Shown here piece after piece: positions 2,508 through 62,937 of a stretch of 64,000 nt of DNA (the first letter of the stretch is position 1; each line of letters starts with the position of its first letter). The translations under genes were made by a program, and so were the position numbers. A model generated the notes under the pieces. It was not told the DNA's origin and did no database searches. It saw only the letters and a list, made by a program, of their open reading frames with translations. This DNA comes from an uncultured archaeon (lineage in GTDB: Archaea; Thermoplasmatota; Penumbrarchaeia; JASLWR01). The stretch lies in assembly GCA_964342815.1 (NCBI GenBank), contig CAYFHS010000012.1:56600-120599 (forward strand). Reading direction: 5' to 3'.

Positions 2508-3671
2508 ATGGGAAGGTCCTCCCGTGGAAAAGAGGCAAGAACACATTACCAGATACTAGGTGTTCAGTTCAATGCCACCAAGGCGGAGATCAAAAAAGCT
2601 TACCGAAGATTGGCGGAGAAATATCATCCAGACCGGACTCGGGACCTACCGGAACACATACGTAAAAAATACGAAAAAGAAATGAAATTGATAAACATGG
2701 CTAAAGACGTTGTTCTAAATCCCACCAGCCGTTCATTTTACAACTACAAACTAGGTTTTTGCGACAGCGTGGAGGTTTTTGAAGAAGAGATCGAGGAAGT
2801 AGAACCCTTGTCAGGTGAAGGTGACCCTGCTGGCTCGCCACACTTTCAAGCCGAGCCAGAAGGCGACATAGAAACGAATGTTTCTATTAGCCCTAATAGA
2901 ATCTATGATTCTATGTCGGGACTCGACTTGTCAGGTAAAGGCGATTCGGATGGTTCCCATTTCATTCCGACGCATCAAGATGCGCCTAAACCCTCGGTTG
3001 GAAAGCCAGCTGGATCACAACACAGGACGGGTAGAGACTTGTCAAATGATAAGGGTAACATAGACGGGATCGATAGGTCATATGTTTCTTTCGGAACCAA
3101 CCCCGAAAGGGAGAACTCTGAAGAAGAATTATCTTCTGAAGATATAGACGAGGATTACGAAATCGCCGCAGAAGTGGTGGAGTTCTTCAGGGAAGAAAAC
3201 GAAGGTTTGGAAGAACCCGAATTGGTTGCCGAAGTGGTAGATATTATCGATGATTCATCCGATTATACCTCACAAGATATGTACCATGAGGATATTGATC
3301 CGATTTCCAACGGTAGTCTGAATGATGAAAAAAATGATTCCAATGAACGGGAGATTACAGAGATCAATAATAATTACGAGGAAGCAAACTTAGAAGACAG
3401 AATTCCTTTCTGGGATGAAGAACCGGTCCGGAAAAGACCAGTTAATGAATTCAAAAAGATCCATCCCCCCCTACCAAAACAAAATAATCCCGATACCGGT
3501 AGCCAGAATTTATTTATCAGAGGAACGGGTTATCACTTGGAGGTACGCCCGGTCAGTCTGTATCAGGACGACAATGTCACAATCGAGGTTACGGCGTCCG
3601 GCCTCAAGTACCGGGACCTGAAGAAGAGAACTCGAAACAGAAAAAAGGGGGATAAAAACCATCACGGATAA
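2508..3671 (+). CDS. J-domain protein (class C-like) with a long acidic low-complexity tail
   Basis: HYQILGV...[16 protein letters not shown]-domain with an intact HPD motif. There is no G/F region or Zn finger. Confidence 0.85.
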
Positions 3672-3792
3672 ACGAGTATTTCCCGGTGCAAGCGAACAGA
3701 TGTTCCAAGATTATCGGCAGAGGCGTATATATAAGAAAAATATAGATACTTTATTAAATTTCAGTTCCTAAGGTTTATCGAAGGTGTCCTCG

Positions 3793-6700
3793 ATGTTAGA
3801 GTTTACCAACAGCTCTCTAAAAAAGGCCCTACTCGGGTTTGTCGTAGCCCTGCTATTTCTGATACCAATTATAATAGACGCTGAATCTCCGACATCCGGT
3901 GGAAAATTGCATGTACATATAGAAAACGTACAAGAAAATGACCCAATTTCGAATGTAAATGGCGAACCGACCAGCGGCATTACAGGAACCAGGAGTATAT
4001 TGATCGAGGAGAGTTTCGAGAGCTACGATAATCTGGACAATACCAGCACCACTGCATTATTGTCCGATGGCAAGGCAATGCTATCGAGAACCCCGGCACC
4101 CGATAAAAAGACAACAATAAGCATTGACCTTGACTGGCTTTCGAATCCTGTCCATACTTATCCCTTTCATCCCAACGCCATGACCTATGATCCAATGATT
4201 CCATGTCTGGTTCTATCACTCCAGGGTCCAAAGGTACTGTACCGTGTAAATCTGGACAATGGAGACAAGCTCGATGAGATTCCAACCATAAGCAACAATA
4301 ATAGCGGGATTGCGTACAACGGGGATTATTACTATTACTCTGTGGGTGCTGACTCCGATTCCAGTAAACCTGACGTATATAAATATCAAAAGGGCCAGGA
4401 TAAGACCGCTGAATTTATTTCCAGTAAATCCAGCAAGGATGGATATCCCCTTACAGTGGTGGGCAATTATATTTACAGGGGAAAGGGCTATGAAGACGGA
4501 AGCAAGGATTGGGGGAAAATAAACCAGTTAGAAAAGGTGTCTTTGGCGGAACCAGACAAGGTATTGAGCACCTTCCAGCTGGGATTTACGGGGATGACCG
4601 ATCTCGCTTTCGATGGCAAATACATCTGGGTGCTTGTTAACAGCTCTGATAAAGTCTCTTTATATCAATTTGATACGGATGGGAACAGCATTGGGACCTT
4701 CAAGGACTTTTATACTCCGAGAGCCGGGCTCAAACCATGCGGCCTTGCTTACGTTGATGGTACGGGGGATGAAGAAGATTCCCTGTATGTACTACTATAC
4801 AAGGAGAGGGGCGAACCCGATAACAGCCAATTGTTAAGGGTGAAGATGACAAGTCGTTATCAGTTAGAAGACACGATAATTTCGAAAACCTATGATGATT
4901 TCGAGGAACCATTATATGCAGTAAAATTCGAAGCTGTAACAACGACAACATCCTCAACCACTCTAGAATATTTCTATTCCAAAGAGAATGGAATAAATTG
5001 GGAGGAGGCAAATCTGAACGAATGGATCGATTTCGAAGAACCGGTGAACAAACTTTCCTATAAGATAATATTGGGTACACGAAATCACGAAAAAACTCCT
5101 ACATTATCCAACCTGAAAGTGCTGAAGAACGAGGTAGAAACTCCCGTTGCCAACTCCCCCACACATAATTTTTGGGCCAACACAGCGAACGTGAATTTCA
5201 AATGGACCTTCAATGATCCAAACGAAGGTGACGCACAGGCGGCATTCGAGATTGAATTAGCTGAAAGTGACACGTTCAGCACGATTTACCGGGAACAGAC
5301 CGTAACAAGCTTGGAAAGAAGCCATACTTTCACCGAAAATTTAAAAGACGGATTATTTTACTGGAGAGTTCGAACAAAGGACGATCACAATCAATGGAGC
5401 GCCTTTTCCGACCCATTCCTCGTCAATGTAAATTGGATATCTCCAGTGGGAAGTGTGATCATTAACAATGACAACCTTACCACCGATGACCGGAAAGTAG
5501 AATTGACCCTCGCTGCAGATGGTACCTACCCAGGCGTCATAGAGATGTATATCAGCAATAACCCCGCGGCTCCCAAAGACGGATCAGCATGGGAAATTTA
5601 CGTGACAAGTTTCAACTGGACCTTGGATAAGGAACTTGGTGAGAAAACAGTCCATGTCTGGTACCGTGACGAAAACGATCTGAAAAGTACTGTTGCAAAG
5701 GCCACCATCACTCTAGAAGAAAAAGCCGTCGATGTCGATACGGGAATTCTGGGTTGGGGAAAGATCGGAGCGGATTCAAAGGGGTATGGGGGCGTTGATA
5801 TTTTTTACATCGTTCTCATCTTGGTTTTAATCGTTATCGTAGTAGTAGTGATCTTTGTAATAAAGAACAGAGGTGGAGGAGATTATTACGACGATGACTA
5901 TGACGATGATGATGAAGAGGAGGAAGATGATCTGGATGTTCTGGAACAGATCCGTCGGAAGCGGAAGAAGGAAATGGGTGCGGAAATAAAGGAAGAGAAA
6001 GAGGACGTGATAGAGGAGGAAGAAGAGGAGGAAGAGAAATTCGAGAAAAAAGCCCACGGCCGCTATACCGACCTTTCAACGGAAGACGATTTTTCCATGG
6101 GCACCAGTCGTTACGGTGTTCCAGAAGAAGAAGAAAAAAAAGAAGAAAAGGAACTCAGCGGTCCGTATTCCATGAAATCATTGGAGGACGATTTCTCATT
6201 GGAACCCCAGAGATACGGGGGCCCTCCTTCCTTGGATGATTTCATGAAGAATATCGAGGACATGAGTGAAGAACCTCAAGCAGAAGAGAAAAAGTCCGCA
6301 TCCATGCCCAAGGAAAAAGAAAAGACGCTCTCAAAAGAGGAAGCAAAGAAAGCCAGGGAACAGATAGAAATGCTGAAAAAACGCCGCCTGGACATTCTGG
6401 ATTCATTGAGGTCAACTACAGACAGCCGCAGACAGAAAGCACTTGAGCAGCAAATGGACGATATTCAGCAGCTGATTATTGGATTGAGAAAACATCTTCC
6501 CGCTGACGAAGAAGTGGACGAAGTCACTGAAGAGGAAGCCCCACCCACGGTAGAGGCGGAAAAGATTGAGGTAATGGATGTACCCAGCGATATAAAGGAC
6601 CAGTTGAAAGAGGGAGCGAGACGAGATAAAAAACGCGGGGTTGGCTTTGGATTTCTGGACCAAGAAGTAGCAGACACGGAAGAAAAAACCTCGCAACAAC

Positions 6701-52795: not shown

Positions 52796-54271
52796 ATGAA
52801 AAAGTATGACGTTATCGCTATCGGTACCGGTTCATCAATGAACATTGTTAGCGCAATGATGCAGAGAAATCCATCTTTAAAGGTTGCAATAATCGACAAG
52901 GACGAACCGGGTGGAATTTGCCTTACACGGGGATGCATTCCTTCCAAGTTGTTACTCTATCCCGCAGAATTGGTCCGAACGGTACAGGACACCGCAAGGT
53001 TCGGGATAGAGAACCGCATAGAAAAGATAGATTTTGCCAGGGTTATGAAACGGATGAGGGACTACATCGACAAGGACATAAACATGATCCGAGCAGGCCT
53101 CTCCCAGGGAGGAAACCTGGATTATTACAATTCAACAGCCGAGTTCACGGCTCCCTATACCCTCACTGTGGAAGGCGAGACCATAAAAGGCGATATGATA
53201 CTGCTTTGTACCGGCTCAAAGATATTCATACCCCCCATTGAGGGTCTCGACGACGTGAAATACCATACGAGCGATACTGTGCTCCACATGACAGAACTCC
53301 CAAAAAGCATTGCTATTGTGGGAGGTGGCTACATTGCCGCGGAATACGGCCATTTCTTTTCTGCAATGGGATCACGAGTGGTTATAATAGGGAGAAATCC
53401 CCAGTTCCTGCCACAGGAAGAACCCGAGATATCGGCCCTGGCAAAGCAGAAGCTCGACAAGCATATGAAGATAATCACAGGCCATGAAGTAAAAAGGGTG
53501 AAAAAAACAGATGACGGGCGTATAAAGGTAATTGCGGACCACAAAAAATCGGGTAAGATGGAAGCTATAACCGCTCATGAATTGTTGGTAGCCTCCAGCA
53601 GATCCTCCAATTCCGACATTTTGCATCCGGAAAGAGCGGGAATCGAGACTGACTCCCGTGGGTGGATAAAGGTAAACGAATACATGGAGACCAGCCAAGC
53701 AAATATATGGGCCTTCGGAGATGCCACCGGCAAAAATCTGTTCAAACATGCCGCGAACTATGAGTCGACGGTAGTATATTACAATGCCGTAAAAGGGGCA
53801 AAGGTCAAGGTGGATTACCATGCTGTACCTCATGCCGTTTTCACATATCCCGAGATAGCGGGAGTTGGTATGAGGGAGAAAGATGCAATTGACAAATATG
53901 GTGAGCGACAAATTTTGATTGGATTCCAGAGGTTCGAGGATACGGCAAAGGGCAGCGCAATGGGCGTTATAGACTGTTTTGCAAAGGTTATCTGTAAAAG
54001 GGAAAATTTGGAGATCCTCGGGAGCCATATAATTGGACCAAATGCCTCCATACTGATCCAGGAAATCGTCAATCTTATGTACACTGAGGACAGGTCTGCG
54101 GAACCGATTATGAACGGTATGCACATTCATCCTGCCTTATCTGAAGTTATTGAGCGGGCTTTCGGAAATCTAAATCCTCCAGGGCATTATCAACATACTC
54201 TGTCTCATCAACTGGGGCATATATTGGGTGAAGCGGACGGTAGTCATGGTACAAAACACGGGCATCATTGA
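52796..54271 (+). CDS. Class I pyridine nucleotide-disulfide oxidoreductase (dihydrolipoamide dehydrogenase/mycothione reductase-like)
   Basis: GGICLTRGCIPSK redox disulfide, GGGYIAAE, WAFGD, C-terminal HPALSE His-Glu dyad. No C-terminal Cys-Cys pair. Confidence 0.9.
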   Translation: MKKYDVIAIGTGSSMNIVSAMMQRNPSLKVAIIDKDEPGGICLTRGCIPSKLLLYPAELVRTVQDTARFGIENRIEKIDFARVMKRMRDYIDKDINMIRAGLSQGGNLDYYNSTAEFTAPYTLTVEGETIKGDMILLCTGSKIFIPPIEGLDDVKYHTSDTVLHMTELPKSIAIVGGGYIAAEYGHFFSAMGSRVVIIGRNPQFLPQEEPEISALAKQKLDKHMKIITGHEVKRVKKTDDGRIKVIADHKKSGKMEAITAHELLVASSRSSNSDILHPERAGIETDSRGWIKVNEYMETSQANIWAFGDATGKNLFKHAANYESTVVYYNAVKGAKVKVDYHAVPHAVFTYPEIAGVGMREKDAIDKYGERQILIGFQRFEDTAKGSAMGVIDCFAKVICKRENLEILGSHIIGPNASILIQEIVNLMYTEDRSAEPIMNGMHIHPALSEVIERAFGNLNPPGHYQHTLSHQLGHILGEADGSHGTKHGHH

Positions 54272-54292
54272 TTCCAAAAACGACTAAAAAAC

Positions 54293-55006
54293 TCATTGTT
54301 TGCAGGTTGCCTCTGTTAATAGTTGTACACGGTCTTTACTAAAGAATTCCTCTAAAAACTTCATCGTTCTGGACATTGAAAAATCAGTTTTTCGATTTTT
54401 TTCATACAACATTTTCAGGTCTTCATATCTATCAATATCATACCACTCGGGTAGAAGCTGAACAACTGCCCTTATTTCTTCCAACTTATTCATAGTATCC
54501 CTGAATTCGGATCCACTGCTCCACTTTACTCCATCGAATATATACGGTACGAATGTATCGGTGCGAAAGCCGACGAGATAATAACCACCGTCTATAGCCG
54601 GGCCTATGACCACATCATTCAAGCTGAGAAACTCGAAAGATTTTTTTATAAAACCAGTAGGTAGATCCGGAGAATCACTGCCTATAAGAATTACGTTTTC
54701 ATATCCATCGGAAAATGACTTGATAAAACTGTTCTTGATTCGATCACCCAGATCATTTCCCTCCTGTACGTGATAGCGGTAGTCTTTCCCGATCCAGTTT
54801 ATCATTGTTTCCTCACATGAGTCAATGGTGTAATAAATGACAAATGGAATATTCGTTCTTTCCAGTGATTCAATAATGTCAAGAACGAACAGCTTGTACA
54901 GCTCCTGGGCCATTTTCTCGCCGATTGTTTTGGACAGACGTGTTTTCACGGTCCCCATGAGAGGACATTTGATGAAAATAATGACAATATTTTCTTTTTC
55001 GTTCAT
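54293..55006 (-). CDS. TIGR04282/DUF2064-like (CofC-like) transferase
   Basis: F.K.P..G.VKTRL, Q.G.DLGDRI, LIGSDSP, IGPAIDGGYYL, WYDIDR. ATGA overlap with the upstream gene. Confidence 0.88.
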   Translation of the reverse strand: MNEKENIVIIFIKCPLMGTVKTRLSKTIGEKMAQELYKLFVLDIIESLERTNIPFVIYYTIDSCEETMINWIGKDYRYHVQEGNDLGDRIKNSFIKSFSDGYENVILIGSDSPDLPTGFIKKSFEFLSLNDVVIGPAIDGGYYLVGFRTDTFVPYIFDGVKWSSGSEFRDTMNKLEEIRAVVQLLPEWYDIDRYEDLKMLYEKNRKTDFSMSRTMKFLEEFFSKDRVQLLTEATCKQ

Positions 55007-56232
55007 AAGTACCACAACCTCTCCATGTCGAAATCATCATCCAACAACTGGTTGAATCCACCCGGGATCTTCTTTCCTGATCTCATCAAATGTACAAACG
55101 GAGGTGGAGCCGGTCGGCCCCCCATGAAGGAAGCTCCCACTAATGAGCCGTTCTTTATTACGAGGTCCCTGTACTCTTTATCTGTTTTTCTAATAATTCG
55201 ATGATAATCTTCCCCTACTGCATCAAAATCCCCGAAAAAACCCAGCGGTACCCCAAAAAGGTATGTATGGTAAAATGACGGATACGGGTTGAAAGTTTCA
55301 TCACCACCAGCCATATTTGCCCCAGCTACCCGACCCATGCGTCTTGATGGTTCCCACAATCGAAGTGTTTTTCGGGAGTTCCAATCCATTACGGCGCAAT
55401 CACCCGCTGCGAAAATATTTTCTTTAGAAGTTCGCATTGAGGGATTCACATGAATTCCCTTCGATATTTCCAGATCGGCATCCTGAGCCAGTTTCAGATC
55501 CGGCGATATTCCAGTACAGGCTATGCATAAGTCTAATTTGAGAACCTTACCATCATCAAGAACCAAAGCGGTTAATCGGTCCTCCGTCGTTCGGATATCC
55601 GTTACCTTTTTGCTGGTCAGTATTTCCACACCGTTCTTTTCAAATAAATTTCTAACTCTATGTTTCATGTCTTTTGGAATACCGTGAAAAACAAGATTTT
55701 CACTCCTTGAAAGCAGTGTGACCTTGCGGCCCATACGGCTCAACAGTTCCGCCGTCTCGACCCCGAGAACACCTCCGCCAATAACAACGCATGGACCGTT
55801 TGATTTTTTTAAAAATGATTTGATCCGGTTGGTGTCCTTTACGGATTTGAATTGAAAAACATTTCTGAAATCATGATCCGTAAGATACGGTGGAAGATTT
55901 GGTTTCCCTCCTATTGCCAGCAATAATTTATCGAATTTCTTGATGCTCTTTCGTCCATTTTTTTCCATGGTTATTATGGAATTTCTAACATCCAAAGATA
56001 CAATCTTCCCATTTAGAAAGTCGATTCGATTATCATAAAAAAAATCTATCGGCAACCCTTTCAGCTCTTCTTCCCAAATCTCACCCATCAGGTATTCCTT
56101 GAGAGCCGGTCTGAATATAAAGTTCTCGCCAGAGTCGTCTACAACGGTTATCTTTCCATCGTTATCCCTACGACGTATCTCTCTTGCTGCCTCGACTCCT
56201 GCACATCCACCGCCTATTATCATGTACTTCAC
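55003..56232 (-). CDS. NAD(P)H/FAD-dependent oxidoreductase (NADH:rubredoxin oxidoreductase/NirB-N-like)
   Basis: IIGGGCAG, LLLAIGG, VIGGGVLGVE, IFAAGDCA. Confidence 0.85.
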   Translation of the reverse strand: MKYMIIGGGCAGVEAAREIRRRDNDGKITVVDDSGENFIFRPALKEYLMGEIWEEELKGLPIDFFYDNRIDFLNGKIVSLDVRNSIITMEKNGRKSIKKFDKLLLAIGGKPNLPPYLTDHDFRNVFQFKSVKDTNRIKSFLKKSNGPCVVIGGGVLGVETAELLSRMGRKVTLLSRSENLVFHGIPKDMKHRVRNLFEKNGVEILTSKKVTDIRTTEDRLTALVLDDGKVLKLDLCIACTGISPDLKLAQDADLEISKGIHVNPSMRTSKENIFAAGDCAVMDWNSRKTLRLWEPSRRMGRVAGANMAGGDETFNPYPSFYHTYLFGVPLGFFGDFDAVGEDYHRIIRKTDKEYRDLVIKNGSLVGASFMGGRPAPPPFVHLMRSGKKIPGGFNQLLDDDFDMERLWYL

Positions 56233-57317
56233 CGGCCACCACCTCCCTTGTCCATGGCTTCCTCGAACAGCTCAAGTATATCTATAACTTCGATTCGATC
56301 ATCCAATCCTACGTATTTTCCGTAACAGGTGATGCAATCGCAAGCCATGGTCTTGGCCTTGCCCCGGGCCTCATTCAACCTCTTTTTTCTGTTTCGATCG
56401 TTAGCCCCATCGTAACCAAAGTTCCAGTAATAACAACATGATGTTTTCTTTTTCGAATTTCCCATCTCCACAAGGCTTGAAAACTTATTTATTGCCTTTC
56501 TTGATGCCTCGCCCCGGTTATATCTTCTCGTTATTCGGCAGGAATCATGAAGGGTGATACTAGGTCTAAGTAAAACTTCCGAAAATTTATCACTGTGGGT
56601 TAAAAGAAATTCAGTCACTGTAAGGACTTCGTAATCCGTTTCATATTTGGCCTTGATCCTGACTATTGCCTCAAAACATTCCGCACAACCAGTAATAACA
56701 ATTTTCGGCTTACTTCTAATGATCTTGCCATGCAACAAATCCAAGTTCTTTTCCGCAAGCTCAAACTCTCCAATAAGCAGATGAGGAATCCCGCAGCAGG
56801 TATTCAGACCTCCCAGAATATTGTAGGGAGTTCCAACAAAATTCAATAGTTTCATGGTTCGCCGGATCACTTCCGGAGAATGAATATAACAGCCAGGATA
56901 GAATAATAATTCTTTCTTTTCCGAGGGAACGGATCCCATATACTGGCGGAGGTTGCGATGCTTCAATTTCATATATGTCGTATAGAGCTTCTGTTTCATC
57001 AGCTCGAGGCTGCGCTTATCCTGACCCTTGATCCGGATGTATTTGTCATATTCCCCCGGTTTTTGTGCTCTCAGCTTGTATTTAATAAATAATACCATAT
57101 AGTCCCTTCTGGCACCAGCGGGGCAAACCGGGACGCATCTGCCGCATTGGACACAATTGAACGAAAAGTCGATCATATTTTGCGGAACTTCAGTTTCGGG
57201 CTCAGTTGCCATGTTCAGATCGGCGATTCGAATGTGTTTTTTTGTAACCGGGCATGCTTCCATACACCTGTTGCAGCCGATACAAAGGTCGATATCTCGT
57301 GAAACCCATTTCCGCAT
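56229..57317 (-). CDS. HdrD/GlpC-like Fe-S oxidoreductase (2x[4Fe-4S] plus CCG domains)
   Basis: CIGCNRCMEACP, CVQCGRCVPVCP, FYPGC, TCCG, GCAEC, HDSC, CDCITC. Confidence 0.85.
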   Translation of the reverse strand: MRKWVSRDIDLCIGCNRCMEACPVTKKHIRIADLNMATEPETEVPQNMIDFSFNCVQCGRCVPVCPAGARRDYMVLFIKYKLRAQKPGEYDKYIRIKGQDKRSLELMKQKLYTTYMKLKHRNLRQYMGSVPSEKKELLFYPGCYIHSPEVIRRTMKLLNFVGTPYNILGGLNTCCGIPHLLIGEFELAEKNLDLLHGKIIRSKPKIVITGCAECFEAIVRIKAKYETDYEVLTVTEFLLTHSDKFSEVLLRPSITLHDSCRITRRYNRGEASRKAINKFSSLVEMGNSKKKTSCCYYWNFGYDGANDRNRKKRLNEARGKAKTMACDCITCYGKYVGLDDRIEVIDILELFEEAMDKGGGGR

Positions 57318-57337
57318 GTACTCTTCTATGCTTGGTA

Positions 57338-58105
57338 TTATCCTCTCTTTTCCGATATTTTTTCCTCCTTGTTGAGCTGGGTTTCAGATTTACCAAGTTT
57401 ATTTTCTTTCATGACTTTTCGGGTATGCCTTATGAGTAAAGTCAAGATCGTCGCGATAACAACAATAACAATGATCAATGTCCAGGGAATTTCACCCTTC
57501 GTGATTCCACTTGTAACCGCATCCGCCCCAACCACGTAGATGATCGTCACCGGAAGCATGCACAGCCACGTCCATAGAACGTACGTCCGAAATTTCACTC
57601 GAGTGAGTCCAAAGCCGTAATTTACCAGATTGTAAGGAAATAATGGAATCAAACGAACTATGGCAACGGAAAGTTGTCCGTGGGATTCGATGAACTCCTC
57701 CAGTTTGCGGAATTTCTCGTTTTTACTCATCCATCGTTCCACGGCATCCTTTGCAAAATACCTTCCGATGAGAAATGAAAGCGAGGCCCCTATGGTAGAA
57801 CCGACGCTAACCACGATGACACCCAGAAAAGACCCGAAAAGGATACCGGCAGCAATGGTTATCAATGAACCAGGTATAATCGCGATGGTGGCAATAATAT
57901 ATATTAAAATATAGACCAACATACCCAGAACTCCCAGTGAACCGATCCAATCGCGAAGTTCACCCAATCTATCATCGAGGCCAAATAGCTCAACTATGAC
58001 GAAAACCGTGAGAATCAATAAAATGAAAACTAATGGTTTGATAAGATAATGTCTGCTCCGGTCTTGTCTTACCGGTTCTTCCTTTCTTGGGTTATCATTA
58101 TCCAT
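57338..58105 (-). CDS. TVP38/TMEM64 (VTT/DedA family) membrane protein
   Basis: IPGSLITIAAGILFG, RLIPLFPYNLVNY.FGLT. Confidence 0.9.
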   Translation of the reverse strand: MDNDNPRKEEPVRQDRSRHYLIKPLVFILLILTVFVIVELFGLDDRLGELRDWIGSLGVLGMLVYILIYIIATIAIIPGSLITIAAGILFGSFLGVIVVSVGSTIGASLSFLIGRYFAKDAVERWMSKNEKFRKLEEFIESHGQLSVAIVRLIPLFPYNLVNYGFGLTRVKFRTYVLWTWLCMLPVTIIYVVGADAVTSGITKGEIPWTLIIVIVVIATILTLLIRHTRKVMKENKLGKSETQLNKEEKISEKRG

Positions 58106-58129
58106 ATTAATCCGTAATCCATAATAGTT

Positions 58130-59101
58130 TCATTCCGTCAACGCCCCACGACACGACGAACCGAAACCGGCGGTACATCCGAAACAATGTTCCCCCGTAA
58201 TGATCTTGCGCGGAACAAATCCTTTATCCGAAATTTCCGAAATATTACCAGGGACATCGGAATGCACTCCGAGACCCAGGGCAAGATTGAAATCACAATC
58301 GTATATATTGCCGTCCCAACCGATGCTGATCTGAGATCTGCACATCAGGCCATGGAGAGTATCGGAATTGAATGAATCGGACAAGAGATTTTGGTATTCA
58401 TCGAGCTGTTTATTTTCTTCGAGAAATATACGAAAATTTCCCAGAACCATGTTTGTAATGATATAAAGATTATTGAATTTTATTCCGAATCGATCATAAA
58501 GCTCCCTTTTATAATCACTTTCAAGTGACGATTGATCGGGAGGAAGAACGGGCCCCCCGGGATTGTAAACCAGGTCCAAGATCAGACCGGGCTCGATCCC
58601 ATACCCCAGAGAATTTAATTTTTTCAACGCTTTAATGCTTTTTTCATAGGTCCCCGGTCCACGCTGAGCTGATACGTTCTCCTCGAGATAACAGGGCATG
58701 GATGCTACTAGTTTCACCCTGTTATCCCTAAAAAAAGAGGGGAGGTGATCCAATCCGGGCTCTAAAAGGGCTGTGAGATTCGTTCTTAACTGCACCTCAG
58801 TCCCTAATGATTTCAACTCCTTTACGAAACGTTGGATATTAGAATTCAATTCCGGGGCCCCACCTGTGATATCCACCAGTTTCGGGTGAATTTTTTTTAC
58901 CAGTTCCAGAATAGATTCCATAACGTCCCATTCCATAATCTCCTCTCTGTCTGGAGACGCCTCGAGGTGACAGTGCGCGCACTGCTGGTTGCACAAATAG
59001 CCAACATTTACCTGGATAATTTCAATTTTTTCCGCAAAAAGCTCTGTATTCAGAGCATTTAGAACATTTCTATCAAAATCGTTCATCTTAACAATCCTCA
59101 A
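58130..59101 (-). CDS. arsS: ArsS-like radical SAM protein (TIGR04167-type, with DUF3641 C-terminus)
   Basis: QVNVGYLCNQQCAHCH, DITGGAPE, ASMPCY, LVYNP.G, YDCDFN, HCFGCTAG.GSSC.G. Confidence 0.88.
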   Translation of the reverse strand: MRIVKMNDFDRNVLNALNTELFAEKIEIIQVNVGYLCNQQCAHCHLEASPDREEIMEWDVMESILELVKKIHPKLVDITGGAPELNSNIQRFVKELKSLGTEVQLRTNLTALLEPGLDHLPSFFRDNRVKLVASMPCYLEENVSAQRGPGTYEKSIKALKKLNSLGYGIEPGLILDLVYNPGGPVLPPDQSSLESDYKRELYDRFGIKFNNLYIITNMVLGNFRIFLEENKQLDEYQNLLSDSFNSDTLHGLMCRSQISIGWDGNIYDCDFNLALGLGVHSDVPGNISEISDKGFVPRKIITGEHCFGCTAGFGSSCRGALTE

Positions 59102-59113
59102 ATCATGGTTTAT

Positions 59114-59875
59114 TTAATTGTCCTTATAGTACTTAATCAAACTCTCCGGTTCCACACCCATGTGATATAACAAGCGGATGATCCAGTTTCTAAATGTACC
59201 ATACAGCGGCCCTTCCTTTTCCCACCTTCTAGGTGACGATATGACCTTTCGAGGTATTATTTTCATCGAATGACCGCTTTTACGTATACGTTCCATCAGC
59301 TCGAGGTCTTCCATTATAGGGATCTCCCTGAAACTTCCAATATTAATAAAGATTTTTTTACGTATGAAGATGGCCTGGTCCCCATAGGGTATTCCTGTCA
59401 CATTAGAACGATAGTTGGCGAACCTTTCGATCAATTTCAACATGAATTTTTCCGAATCGATCCCAAGCTGGAATGCACCTGCGACATTATCCTCGTCCGC
59501 GAGTGCTTCTTCGATACAGGAAAGTGCGTCGCGGGGGATGATTACATCCGCATGAAGAAACAGGAGAATTTCACCTCTTGCGATCCTGCTGCCTGCATTC
59601 ATCTGTACAGCCCGCCCCTTTTCCGAACCCATAGTTATGACCTCTTCGGATCTGATCAACTCAATGGTATCCTTCTCGGGGCTACCGTCCACTACTATAA
59701 TCTCAGCACTTTCGATGTCATGGATGGTCTGAAGAAAATCGATTATTTTGTTGATATTATCTCCTTCATGTAGGACCGGAATCACGATTGAATATCGGCA
59801 TGTAGTACTTTGAGAATTGTTCTTAAAAGTAAAACCTCCTGATTTCCATGCTTTATCAACTGCTTTGATCATCAA
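59114..59875 (-). CDS. TIGR04283-like GT2 glycosyltransferase
   Basis: SIVIPVLHE, GRAVQMNAG, LLFLHAD, PYGDQAIF, MEDLEL, SPRRW. The start may be further downstream. Confidence 0.9.
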   Translation of the reverse strand: MMIKAVDKAWKSGGFTFKNNSQSTTCRYSIVIPVLHEGDNINKIIDFLQTIHDIESAEIIVVDGSPEKDTIELIRSEEVITMGSEKGRAVQMNAGSRIARGEILLFLHADVIIPRDALSCIEEALADEDNVAGAFQLGIDSEKFMLKLIERFANYRSNVTGIPYGDQAIFIRKKIFINIGSFREIPIMEDLELMERIRKSGHSMKIIPRKVISSPRRWEKEGPLYGTFRNWIIRLLYHMGVEPESLIKYYKDN

Positions 59876-60458
59876 CTATCTTTTTCCCAAACTCATAGGA
59901 TTCGTTCAGTATTTCGGGATAATTCCGAATTTTGCCTTTCTCCTCGATCTTCGGATAAAATAATCCGTTCTGGTAACTCATATCCAAAGCATCGAAAAAG
60001 TAGCGAGCTGTGAGCTTGACGCCATGAAATAGGTTCTTACCCCAGGTTGCTCCCACCGCCAGCAGATACCCTTTTCCGCTATCATATGTCTTCAATCCTT
60101 CGGGATCCTTTGTGAGTTTCCTTCGGTTCCATTCTGCCTGAGACCGGTCTATAAACGCTTTTAGCTGGGAGGGAAATCCATAAAAGAAGATCGACGAAGC
60201 CAATAATATCACGTCGGCATCTTGCAGTTGTGGATATATTTCCTGCATGTCATCCTTGATTATGCAATTACCCGTAGTATCGCACCCAGCGCACTCAGTG
60301 CATCCGGAGATATCGAGATCGCATACCCGTATGGTTTTTATCGCTGCACCATTGTCCACGGCTCCCTTGAGAGCCTCGTCCAGTAGAATCGAACTGTTAC
60401 CGTTCACACGGGGACTTCCGTATATGCCAATAATCTTCAATTTCAATTCAACTCCCAT
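59856..60458 (-). CDS. Iron-sulfur flavoprotein (Isf) / NADPH-dependent FMN reductase family
   Basis: GSPR.NGNS, CTECAGC...C, ASSIFF...SQLKAFIDR. Confidence 0.88.
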   Translation of the reverse strand: MGVELKLKIIGIYGSPRVNGNSSILLDEALKGAVDNGAAIKTIRVCDLDISGCTECAGCDTTGNCIIKDDMQEIYPQLQDADVILLASSIFFYGFPSQLKAFIDRSQAEWNRRKLTKDPEGLKTYDSGKGYLLAVGATWGKNLFHGVKLTARYFFDALDMSYQNGLFYPKIEEKGKIRNYPEILNESYEFGKKIVDDQSS

Positions 60459-60470
60459 TTAATACCGTCA

Positions 60471-61157
60471 TCACAGTTTCACGAATATTCGTTTATTGGC
60501 CCCACATCCCGGACATCTCCAGTTTTTCGGAAGGTCCTCGAAAACCGTCCCCGGATCGATTCCCTGATCGGGGATGCCCCTTGCGGGATCATAGACATAA
60601 CCGCATACTCTGCACTCGTACATCCCGGTTCGATCAATAAGCTTCTCATCTTCTTCCCGGTAATAGGTTGGAGCGTTCTTGGGGGATACTCCTCCCTTTT
60701 TCATGCGGTAATAATCATAGGTCATAGGCGGGTCTTTAATGAGGACCTTTGCATCTTTTATTTTACCAACGAATATCGTGTGCGATCCCACATTCATATT
60801 GTCGATCACTTTCGCTTCCATGTAGGCAACGCAATTTTCCTTGATCAGAGGTGAACCGGTTACTCCAATATTATAATCAACGTTCTCGAACTTGTCCCTA
60901 TCTCTCCCAGAATTGAACCCGAAATTCCGGATGAAATCCATAGGCGTTTTCTTCGATAGTGCGTGAACCGTAAAAACACCGCTTTCTTCGATGAATCCAT
61001 GAGTATAATTATCTTTATTTATACTGACTGCAAGGATCTTTGGGTCCGAGGTAACCTGGAAAATAGCGTTGGCGATCTGTGCATTTGGTCTGGACCCGCT
61101 TCTTGAAGAAATTAAATACAGTCCGTATGATATCTTATGCAATGATCTGGGATCCAT
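60471..61157 (-). CDS. hrb: Flavin reductase-like domain plus rubredoxin (high-molecular-weight rubredoxin, Hrb-like)
   Basis: [20 protein letters not shown]...[19 protein letters not shown]...WRCPGC. Confidence 0.85.
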
Positions 61158-61186
61158 ATATTCATCTCTCCTTCGTGCAAATACAG

Positions 61187-61732
61187 TTATTTCGTCATCG
61201 ATATTTTTTCCAGAGCTAATCGGGCGGGTCGATCCAATTCCGAAGCAACCTGATGTGAGGATAAAATCGGGTTCACAGTTTCCGTTCTCTTTGATATAAT
61301 AAGAAGAGTGATCAGAGTCTCATGGGCTGAAATTCCAAGTTTTTCTTTTACCAGATCCGAGTCGTATCCCGCAATAGGGTGCGCTACCAGACCCAGCTCG
61401 GTAGCTCGCAAGAGCAGGAAGGCCGTGGCAATGCCGGTATCGAACAGATAATATTCCCTCTCGTCGATAATACAGTCCACGTCCCTTTGACTGTAAACGG
61501 CAACGATAAGGGATGCCGAATTGGCCCAGGCATTTCCCGGTGATAAAGATAATTTCAATTTTTCAAGAATTTCATCTTCGCGGACGAAAATAAATCTCCA
61601 GGGCTGATTGTTGTAACAAGATGGGGCAAGTTGTGCGGCACTGGCAAGCTCTTTGATCAGCTCATCAGTGACCGTAAAGGGTACGAGGGAACGATAAGCT
61701 CTTCTAGCGTCAATTGCTTCGCTGACTTCCAT
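61187..61732 (-). CDS. Nitroreductase family protein
   Basis: [29 protein letters not shown]. Confidence 0.9.
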
Positions 61733-61837
61733 TTTTCCCACTCGCTAAATTAAGACCCGTTGCATCGGGGAATTCAAATTTAGTTTCCCATGGTGATAAG
61801 TACACTTGAGCGATACTTTTACCGGGAACCAATAATA

Positions 61838-62053
61838 TCAACAGGAACTGTGGTCGATAGCCTCTTCGGGACAGGCGGCAACGCATGCGCAGCACTCGAT
61901 GCATTCCGCGATATTGGGCGGCGTTGCCTTTCCGTCAACCAGCTCGTAAACGCTCATTGGACAGACATCCACGCATTCCGAGTGCCCGGCACATTTTTCA
62001 TAGTCGATCTTTATCGTGATCCCTGAATCATTTTCCCACTTCATGACAGTCAT
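61838..62053 (-). CDS. Small ferredoxin (2x[4Fe-4S]-type; first motif atypical, with His)
   Basis: CAGHSECVDVCP and CIECCACVAACP. ATG 62053 follows AAGGAGG. Confidence 0.9.
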   Translation of the reverse strand: MTVMKWENDSGITIKIDYEKCAGHSECVDVCPMSVYELVDGKATPPNIAECIECCACVAACPEEAIDHSSC

Positions 62054-62054
62054 T

Positions 62055-62187
62055 TTATTCCTCCTTAACAATTAATTTTCCAAGCTCAATACCCGTAACT
62101 TTCGCAGATAAAAGCTCATCAGCATCAAGTATATATTTGAGATCCGCCGACCCAATACACGCCAGGTTTGATCTCGACTTTCTTCAT
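62055..62187 (-). pseudogene. fprA: Internally deleted flavodiiron protein (FprA) remnant
   Basis: ATG 62187 reads MKKVEIKPGVYWVG (an FprA-like N-terminus) and stops at 62125. A +1 frame then reads DLKYILDADELLSAKVTGIELGKLIVKEE* (resembling FprA C-termini) to TAA 62055. Confidence 0.7.
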
Positions 62188-62191
62188 GGTA

Positions 62192-62350
62192 TCATTCCTT
62201 AGAAAAGTCTTCCTTGCCGGCGCCGCAGACAGGACAGACCCAATCATCGGGCAAATCCTCGAAAGAGGTTCCCGGAGATATCCCGCCGTCGGGATCTCCA
62301 ACCGAAGGGTCGTAAACATATCCGCACAAATCGCAAACGTAGTTGTCCAT
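62192..62350 (-). CDS. rub: Rubredoxin
   Basis: [37 protein letters not shown] 62350 follows GGAGG. Confidence 0.97.
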
Positions 62351-62388
62351 TTTTGTTGCCTCCTTTTTTTTATCAGTGGTATTTTGAC

Positions 62389-62453
62389 CAGGGGAGGAGA
62401 ACCTCCCCTGACACCCCTCCATTTTTCTTTCTGTACAGGGGGAGTACCCCCTG
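62389..62453. repeat. Two GC-rich hairpins (REP-like) between perR and rubredoxin
   Basis: CAGGGGAGG-AGAA-CCTCCCCTG (62389-62410) and CAGGGGG-AGTA-CCCCCTG (62436-62453). Confidence 0.7.
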
Positions 62454-62532
62454 GAAATAAAGAAAAAAACCATCAGGTTTTAGAAAGGGAGTTCCTATCG
62501 ATTACTATTCATATATTATCGAATTATCTTTC

Positions 62533-62937
62533 TCACTCACTATAGCATGTCTCACACACGCCCTTGAAATAACCGTGGATCTCCTCGATACTGTGCCCGT
62601 CCACCATTTTGCTTTCCTGGTGCTTGCACACGATATCCACGTCGATAATCGAGCCGCATTTCCTGCAGAGAAAATGGTGATGCGGGTCCGTGTGATAATC
62701 ATATCGGTTCTCCGTCTTCGATATGGTCAATTCCTGAATGACCCCTATCTCGCGGAGCTTGTCGAGAGTGTTGTAGACGGTTGTCCGTGACAAGGACGGA
62801 TTTGTGCTTTTAAGGTCGTTGTAAATAGTATCCGCATCGGGGTGAGTACGGTTCTCGTCGAGATATTTCAGAATCGTTAGTCGTTGTGGCGTTATCTTCA
62901 GACCCTTTCCCTTGAGGATACGGACATATTTTTCCAT
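62533..62937 (-). CDS. perR: Fur-family regulator, PerR-like
   Basis: ITPQR, HPDAD, SRTTVYNTL, RYD...HHHFLCRKC, CETC. PerR rather than Fur is inferred from gene context. Confidence 0.8.
   Translation of the reverse strand: MEKYVRILKGKGLKITPQRLTILKYLDENRTHPDADTIYNDLKSTNPSLSRTTVYNTLDKLREIGVIQELTISKTENRYDYHTDPHHHFLCRKCGSIIDVDIVCKHQESKMVDGHSIEEIHGYFKGVCETCYSE

Follow-up and report, generated by a model that had tools for sequence, protein, structure and literature searches.

Organization of the locus

The DNA analysed here is a window of 64,000 nucleotides (nt) from an uncultured marine archaeon (GTDB lineage Archaea; Thermoplasmatota; Penumbrarchaeia; JASLWR01). It forms the end of a 120.6-kb contig (GenBank assembly GCA_964342815.1, contig CAYFHS010000012.1, positions 56,600–120,599) in a 4.35 Mb genome that is 89% complete and has a G+C content of 45%. 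Thirteen minus-strand genes of the window, from perR to a DUF2064 gene, run in one direction with gaps that are tiny or replaced by overlaps. The subject of this work is the downstream part of that run, a cassette centred on an ArsS-family radical S-adenosylmethionine (SAM) enzyme; upstream of it stands an oxidative-stress operon led by perR. Gene calls and identities were taken from the open reading frame (ORF) listing and from Pfam and NCBIfam profile scans of the window. They bear out the gene list of a preliminary description of this DNA, made from its sequence alone, since every member was found where it had been placed.

In the order of transcription, the cassette comprises a GT2-fold transferase of family TIGR04283 (59114–59872; 245 bits against a cut-off of 182), the ArsS-family enzyme of TIGR04167 (58130–59101; 410 bits against 300), a VTT/DedA-family membrane protein (57338–58105), an HdrD-like iron-sulfur protein with two [4Fe-4S] and two CCG motifs (56229–57317; called the CCG protein here), a 409-residue FAD/NAD(P)H flavoprotein of the ferredoxin/rubredoxin reductase type (55003–56232) and a DUF2064/CofC-like GT-A-fold transferase of TIGR04282 (54293–55015; 181 bits against 134). 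Directly upstream lies isf (59856–60458), which encodes an ISF-type iron-sulfur flavoprotein with a C-x2-C-x2-C-x5-C motif. A class-I flavoprotein disulfide reductase with a CLTRGC motif (52796–54271, plus strand) converges on the run, its stop codon 21 nt from that of the DUF2064 gene. Both this convergence and the lack of an arsM gene within the window had been described correctly.

The genes are tightly joined, and the overlapping junctions reported earlier are real. The stop of isf overlaps the start of the GT2 gene (ATG 59872, or TTG 59875) by 17 nt (17–20 nt, depending on the start), the CCG and flavoprotein genes share a 4-nt GTGA, and the flavoprotein and DUF2064 genes a 4-nt ATGA. From ntr to the DUF2064 gene every gap is at most 29 nt; the ArsS gene has an alternative start (ATG at 59086). 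Intergenic oligo-T runs occur after perR and just past the DUF2064 stop (T6) and nowhere else in the run; a scan of the junctions found none between rub and the DUF2064 gene. Because isf translationally overlaps the GT2 gene, no separate promoter can lie between the two. Independent promoters splitting them, which the preliminary description had named as evidence against its proposal, are thus not what the sequence holds.

The ArsS enzyme and its two transferases

The ArsS match (410.5 bits; the cut-off of 300 is set at equivalog level) spans model positions 3–303 of 303. The radical SAM motif CX3CX2C corresponds to C37, C41 and C44, within CNQQCAHC, and is followed by a cysteine-rich DUF3641 C-terminal domain in which conservation is equally strict: C137, C254, C269 and C306 are invariant across 95 homologues, and C309 and C317 are kept in 94 of the 95. 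The protein is 52–61% identical to bacterial ArsS and 46–53% identical to ArsS from same-class archaea of family f7. A quick IQ-TREE phylogeny of 95 rows places it, with the ArsS of a same-genus genome and that of the metagenome contig L117, in a clade (Shimodaira–Hasegawa-like approximate likelihood ratio test, 100) within the bacterial radiation, separate from the f7 archaeal clade (also 100). This position, in line with the identities, suggests that the cassette may have been acquired from a VTT-type cluster. A structure search found no solved structure for ArsS.

Both transferases belong to families named 'arsenosugar biosynthesis glycosyltransferase'; they score above their curated cut-offs and flank ArsS here and in relatives, so that the module of ArsS and two transferases proposed at the outset stands on three families above curated thresholds. 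TIGR04282 itself has only the status of a 'hypothetical equivalog', and the nearest solved structure to the DUF2064 transferase is 3CGX, a protein whose function is not known.

Conservation of the cassette

Two collections were used for comparison. The best 80 ArsS loci were taken from a species-level genome collection, 79 of them from outside this genus, and a phylum sample comprised 201 Thermoplasmatota genomes of at least 85% completeness, in which ArsS scored above cut-off in 17 genomes from four families.

The same-genus genome has the order perR-rub-fprA-fdx-isf-GT2-arsS-VTT-CCG-flavoprotein-DUF2064, with an intact fprA of 394 codons, and converges on the same reductase. On the related contigs L117 and L118, whose facing reductase is 85% identical, everything from isf to that reductase is kept in the same order; upstream of isf, L117 has a protein kinase gene in place of the perR operon. 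The arrangement is not due to chance: the same-genus genome shares it, and a related metagenome contig preserves the part that reaches from isf to the facing reductase. Contig L119, with a CCG protein of 56% identity, has arsS-VTT-CCG-flavoprotein-DUF2064. Where the CCG protein is 41–45% identical (L121, L127 and one further contig) the order is GT2-arsS-VTT-CCG-DUF2064, without the flavoprotein, and this five-gene order recurs in all seven ArsS-positive genomes of family f19 in the phylum sample. In one genome of f13 and in eleven of family f7, which belongs to the same class, the cassette consists of the trio of arsS, TIGR04282 and TIGR04283 alone.

The usual bacterial order is ArsS-(DUF547)-VTT-reductase-TIGR04282-TIGR04283. 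VTT stands beside ArsS in 39 of the 80 loci and a class-I reductase in 40, the latter being NF004991 (735 bits against a cut-off of 620). Bacterial and archaeal cassettes share ArsS (52–61% identity), VTT (45–56%), both transferases and a reductase between VTT and TIGR04282. They differ in that the bacterial NF004991 enzyme is matched here by an HdrD-like CCG protein and a separate NAD(P)H flavoprotein, in that the GT2 gene has shifted to the front, and in that no DUF547 gene was found here. Neither the CCG protein nor the 409-residue flavoprotein occurs in any of the best 80 loci except the same-genus one. From their occurrence in about half of the 80 loci and in the CCG-type archaeal cassettes, VTT and a reductase are recognized as a recurrent accessory pair of ArsS cassettes, the reductase in Thermoplasmatota being the CCG protein. 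GT2, ArsS, VTT, CCG and DUF2064 genes form the core, which is the ArsS 'arsenosugar-type' cassette in its Thermoplasmatota version; judged by its homologues, the CCG protein is specific to such cassettes. A replacement of the flavoenzyme by a CCG protein in archaea was not found in the searchable literature.

To this core the lineage adds the NAD(P)H flavoprotein after CCG, isf overlapping GT2 (found beside the cassette only in this genus and on L117 and L118) and, in this genus only, the junction with perR-rub-fprA. The core families are already named in NCBIfam; what is new here are the flavoprotein and ISF add-ons, the genus-level perR junction and the standing of the facing reductase as a housekeeping gene.

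Several variants deserve mention. The DUF547 protein found between arsS and VTT in many bacterial clusters has about 300 residues and no NCBIfam name (for example L066:10993-11892, L057:10976-11962, L041:11438-12394 and L054:10997-11848); the host genome gave no match to it, and control genomes were equally silent. Four bacterial loci in which the reductase precedes VTT were checked for a fusion of the two, and the genes are separate there. In two deltaproteobacterial loci (L039:10987-12506 and L052:11080-12634) the class-I reductase frame is split into two ORFs, possibly by a selenocysteine codon or a frameshift. Downstream of the flavoprotein-less archaeal cassettes (L121:9831-11602, L127:7827-9573, L128:7723-9487) stands a conserved ORF of 141–143 residues without a family match, followed by a NosD-like beta-helix gene and a DsrE-like gene. 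Contig L128 (4219-7748; Logan SRR5506739) itself has a Thermoplasmatota-type GT2-VTT-CCG-DUF2064 cassette with no arsS and a gap of 219 bp between GT2 and VTT; the ferredoxin-type N-terminus is missing from its CCG protein.

The CCG protein and its partners

All 19 cysteines of the CCG protein are invariant in 24 homologues. Its two ferredoxin-type motifs (CX2CX2CX3CP) span C12–C22 and C55–C65, and the two CCG-type motifs are formed by C143/C174-C175/C211-C214 and C260/C294-C295/C328-C331, the second of which reads CCY. NCBIfam places it in no named family among HdrD, TfrB, GlpC and LdhH, the best being TfrB with 65 bits against 385; NF045663, a fused flavoprotein/dicluster/CCG family, does match, and the PDB gave a single weak sequence match (9ojn, E 3e-10). 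The protein shares with the HdrD/CCG reductases (HdrDE, TfrB, GlpC, LldF) the succession of two [4Fe-4S] and two CCG-type motifs and an adjacent membrane-protein gene. It differs from them in its neighbour, a DedA/VTT protein instead of a cytochrome b, in the CCY of its second motif and in scores far below all family cut-offs.

The 409-residue flavoprotein lacks the redox cysteine that CoADR and Nox enzymes have at about position 42 and resembles ferredoxin and rubredoxin reductases. A flavoprotein gene also comes next after the genes of CCG homologues at 40% and 35% identity, there outside any ArsS cluster. VTT is 45–56% identical to the VTT proteins of bacterial and other archaeal ArsS clusters, and CCG homologues of 41–62% identity all belong to GT2-ArsS-VTT-CCG-DUF2064 cassettes. 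The module therefore counts VTT and the CCG protein among its conserved members, joined in this lineage by the flavoprotein, as had been supposed. Complex prediction for VTT (18-row alignment) and the CCG protein (24 rows) gave 0.00 against a mark of 0.32, which is evidence neither for nor against an interaction. ISF matches PF03358 at 74 bits and combines an FMN-reductase fold with the motif C53-x2-C56-x2-C59-x5-C65.

Arsenic genes in the host and the phylum

The host genome encodes an ArsM on another contig, C68 (4.4 kb), which is full-length, has all conserved cysteines and scores 345 bits against the NF008823 cut-off of 263; acr3 is also present (388 bits). For selD nothing above cut-off was found in this 89% complete genome. 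Neither here nor in 11 same-class loci is there an arsM less than 10 kb away from arsS. Across the best 80 loci it stands directly upstream of arsS in eight, four of which also have VTT and a reductase; one of the eight reads ArsM-Pit-like transporter-ArsS-DUF547-VTT-reductase. In the phylum sample, ArsM (called at E ≤ 1e-60) was present in 13 of the 17 ArsS-positive genomes and in 34 of the 184 ArsS-negative ones (odds ratio 14; Fisher 1.7e-6, a value that is overstated because related genomes are not independent).

The arsM-arsS pathway of Synechocystis sp. PCC 6803 has in common with the present genome an ArsS above the TIGR04167 cut-off and a full ArsM, and the two enzymes co-occur across this phylum. 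In Synechocystis, arsM and arsS are neighbours and co-transcribed, and ArsS uses ArsM products (bioRxiv 10.1101/2022.09.23.509062, citing Xue et al., 2019); here the genes are unlinked, the host is a strictly anaerobe-type archaeon, and VTT, the CCG reductase, the NAD(P)H flavoprotein and ISF are additional. On contig C68 (L138:1212-2455 and 3569-3883), arsM is directly followed by a gene that matches the 'HgcAB-associated protein HgcC' with an AbrB/MazE-type domain (121 bits against 70); a second gene there has a weak AbrB/MazE-type match below cut-off (20 bits against 24.7).

The preliminary description had proposed a novel arsenic-, sulfur- or selenium-linked redox metabolite as a possible product. 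The presence of arsM, its co-occurrence with arsS and the failure to find selD lead us to prefer an ordinary organoarsenical pathway; this is our best reading, not proof, and for a redox metabolite of sulfur or selenium we see no support. As evidence that would speak against its proposal, the description had itself named an arsM elsewhere together with standard arsenosugar products. The gene half of that pair is present on C68; the products are the other half.

Proposed pathway and alternatives

We read the region as a Thermoplasmatota ArsS-centred organoarsenical ('arsenosugar-type') cassette that lies beside an unrelated oxidative-stress operon, and we put the probability of this reading at about 60%. 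The unlinked ArsM would methylate As(III) to trivalent dimethylarsenic, DMAs(III), and ArsS would transfer the 5'-deoxyadenosyl group of SAM to it, yielding 5'-deoxy-5'-dimethylarsinoyl-adenosine (DDMAA); this redox-neutral reaction has been published for cyanobacterial ArsS (PMC13598754). The two GT-A-fold enzymes of TIGR04283 and TIGR04282 might then process or transfer the arsenoribosyl moiety, and the VTT/DedA protein could carry a substrate, a product or an intermediate attached to a lipid through the membrane. Bacterial cassettes have a class-I flavoprotein disulfide reductase where the CCG protein stands here, and the CCG protein would replace it. It would draw its electrons from ferredoxin through its pair of [4Fe-4S] clusters or, in the present lineage, through the 409-residue flavoprotein from NAD(P)H; ISF would be a lineage-specific add-on. 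Most likely the CCG reductase carries out a two-electron reduction of the thiol/disulfide type, for instance to keep a methylarsenical trivalent; that it supplies ArsS with electrons is less likely. We favour a two-electron reduction acting on a metabolite because the ArsS reaction is redox-neutral and because the slot is held by two unrelated disulfide-type catalysts.

Some observations weigh against this reading. We know of no product measured for any archaeal or anaerobe cassette, the biochemistry being confined, to our knowledge, to the cyanobacterial ArsS and ArsM homologues, and ArsM and ArsS are the only enzymes of arsenosugar synthesis that we know to have been characterized. The arsM gene is unlinked to the cassette in this genome and in every archaeal relative examined, and ArsM was not found in four of the 17 ArsS-positive phylum genomes (89–94% complete). 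Contig L128 retains GT2, VTT, CCG and DUF2064 genes without arsS, so the accessory genes may act on something that does not need ArsS, and most CCG-type cassettes lack the flavoprotein, so that input from NAD(P)H would not be general. The roles given to the two transferases, to VTT and to the reductase are suggested by position and family.

If the reductase did not act on a metabolite, ISF, the CCG protein and the flavoprotein could merely prime the [4Fe-4S] cluster of ArsS, a task that falls to flavodoxin and its reductase in E. coli. All radical SAM enzymes require such one-electron priming. ISF has a flavodoxin-like fold and an Fe-S cluster, the flavoprotein is of the ferredoxin-reductase type without a redox cysteine, and the CCG protein carries two ferredoxin-type clusters. 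We nevertheless consider this explanation unlikely, if a serious contender: once primed, ArsS is redox-neutral (PMC13598754), and a conserved, dedicated reductase is stoichiometrically unneeded. The position is filled by unrelated two-electron catalysts, class-I CxxxxC flavoenzymes in bacteria and the CCG protein in archaea, which points to chemistry on the substrate; both CCG motifs are invariant, and the trio-type cassettes of f7 manage without ISF, CCG protein or flavoprotein. Another alternative is that the ArsS-family enzyme adenosylates or modifies some other compound, perhaps one linked to sulfur or to a lipid, and that the name 'arsenosugar biosynthesis' has been over-extended. It draws on the scarcity of arsM neighbours (none in archaea, eight of the 80 loci overall), on the ArsS-positive genomes in which no ArsM was detected, on the merely hypothetical standing of TIGR04282, on the accessory genes of L128 and on two hints at sulfur chemistry, namely reductases of the disulfide type and the rhodanese genes of some bacterial clusters. 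Literature searches on the later pathway genes and TIGR04167, which returned only selenoprotein lists and ArsS/ArsL enzymology, can be counted in its favour as well. Against it stand an ArsS score 110 bits above the equivalog cut-off across the whole model, 52–61% identity between bacteria and archaea with cysteines that are invariant or nearly so, a four-fold enrichment of ArsM among ArsS-positive genomes from four separate families, and the existence of ArsM-(Pit)-ArsS-DUF547-VTT-reductase clusters. On balance we find it distinctly doubtful.

The preliminary description joined the two halves of the run: a module under PerR control would make and recycle, for redox defence, a novel compound of As, S or Se that carries an adenosyl or sugar group, with the facing reductase and the flavoenzymes recycling it. 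The local gene order lends itself to this idea, since perR, rub, fdx, ntr, hrb and isf share the strand of the cassette without an intergenic T-run after rub, and isf runs into the start of GT2. Further points for it are that the order holds in the same-genus genome, that isf and the facing reductase persist in L117, and that Fur/PerR-type stress genes accompany ArsS clusters in a planctomycete (L057) and a deltaproteobacterium (L039) as well. The operon is not beside the cassette in L117, L119, L121, L127 or any f19 or f7 genome, however, and a Fur/PerR gene occurs within 10 kb of ArsS in two of 79 non-kin loci, about the frequency expected by chance with two to three Fur-family genes per genome. 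A candidate PerR box precedes perR and, in this genome alone, rub, and is absent before ntr, isf and GT2. The facing reductase is found in 34 of 41 relatives regardless of ArsS and does not belong to NF004991. With the arsenic and selenium genes also as described above, we regard the proposal as highly improbable. The wiring into a peroxide operon is limited to one genus, other families having no oxidative-stress genes nearby; the neighbourhood of perR operon and cassette is a lineage-specific gene order and not a new redox pathway, with read-through from the perR-rub operon into the cassette possible in this genus.

Within the preferred organoarsenical reading, a narrower proposal is that of a membrane-associated unit, made up of the DedA/VTT protein and its partner reductase, that takes up or handles pentavalent methylarsenicals, such as DMAs(V) from seawater, and reduces them to the trivalent form for ArsS. 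The partner would be the CCG protein together with the NAD(P)H flavoprotein here and a class-I flavoenzyme in bacteria. We think this quite improbable, and mention it for what would follow. Such a unit would be the first dedicated methylarsenate reductase and would put names to enzymes of the later arsenosugar steps; anaerobic archaea of oxygen-minimum zones and sediments would turn scavenged methylarsenic into arsenosugar or arsenolipid compounds; and in this genus the pathway would be co-expressed with the response to oxygen stress. Two unrelated two-electron reductases in the same slot beside a DedA protein offer a testable clue to a membrane reduction step in the pathway, and the cassettes suggest a part for uncultured archaea of the sea and of sediments in the cycling of organoarsenic.

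The facing disulfide reductase

The convergent reductase matches NF004947, 'dihydrolipoyl dehydrogenase', with 747 bits against a cut-off of 592, and falls short of NF004991 (277–281 bits against 620). It is the sole class-I enzyme of the genome. Neither E1/E2 nor glycine cleavage system genes adjoin it in the window or in four relatives, a statement about the neighbourhood, as no genome-wide search was made. Most of the 34 relatives that have it, as a single best match, lack ArsS; it is 56–71% identical in ten ArsS-negative genomes, its identity tracks taxonomy, and same-family genomes have it without any cassette. In family f9 a distance of 4 kb separates it from a perR-rub-fprA-ferritin-rubrerythrin block, which is at the same time an instance of the perR-rub-fprA operon without ArsS in another family. 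It is thus probably a housekeeping neighbour, and what the preliminary description tied to the module is a gene that nearly all genomes of the class have in single copy. As a stand-in for NF004991 it was considered and set aside: it occurs irrespective of ArsS and is missing from the L119, L121 and f19 cassettes, though it is kept beside the cassette in L117. To an opportunistic role of that kind we give about one chance in four. Its C-terminus is rich in histidine, with nine in the last 29 residues (54180–54271, residues ~463–491); several relatives match only to residue ~470, and the tail may be a metal-binding extension.

The oxidative-stress operon

Upstream of isf the run consists of perR (62533–62937), of the Fur family, rubredoxin (rub, 62192–62350), a remnant of fprA (62055–62187), a ferredoxin with two [4Fe-4S] clusters (fdx, 61838–62053), a nitroreductase-family gene (ntr, 61187–61732) and hrb (60471–61157), whose product combines flavin-reductase and rubredoxin domains. 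The Fur domain of PerR scores 100 bits and has the CxxC...CxxC cysteines. The operon shares PerR, rubredoxin, flavodiiron protein, ferredoxin, Hrb and ISF on one strand with the PerR-rub-FprA-Hrb operons of anaerobes (Moorella-type hrb/fprA; Methanosarcina ISF), and differs in that fprA is cut down to its two ends here and that the operon abuts an ArsS cassette, in this genus only.

The candidate PerR box TGGTAATCATTACAAA lies between a TATA-like tract and the perR start. The same-genus genome shares this site but not the second copy, the one before rub. A shared operator TRGTAATCRWTA was tried and rejected: its two exact matches lie before perR and rub, the sites from which the pattern was derived, and with five matches at one mismatch or fewer, equalled by 12 of 100 shuffles, it is not enriched. 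The fprA remnant keeps the N-terminal MKKVEIKPGVYWVGG (about 20 codons) and the C-terminal tail, with an internal deletion of about 1.1 kb relative to the intact 394-residue FprA of the same-genus genome (L025:6618-7802). Hrb, the usual partner of FprA, is still encoded. The ntr and hrb genes between fdx and isf are missing from the corresponding position in the same-genus genome, the result of a recent insertion or loss.

In the planctomycete L057 (2304-14245; a Planctomycetota metagenome-assembled genome), perR-rubrerythrin-ferritin-fprA-hrb-rrf2-fdx-hcp-arsS is followed on one strand by DUF547, VTT and class-I reductase genes, an independent case of stress genes standing next to an ArsS cluster. 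In the deltaproteobacterium L039, perR-catalase lies downstream of the ArsS cluster. The spacer between perR and rub (62389–62467) contains G+C-rich hairpins, CAGGGGG...CCCCCTG, beside a T7 run; its counterpart in the same-genus genome measures 420 bp and has several more copies of the hairpin (L025:6240-6420), which may be a small repeat element or a structured leader.

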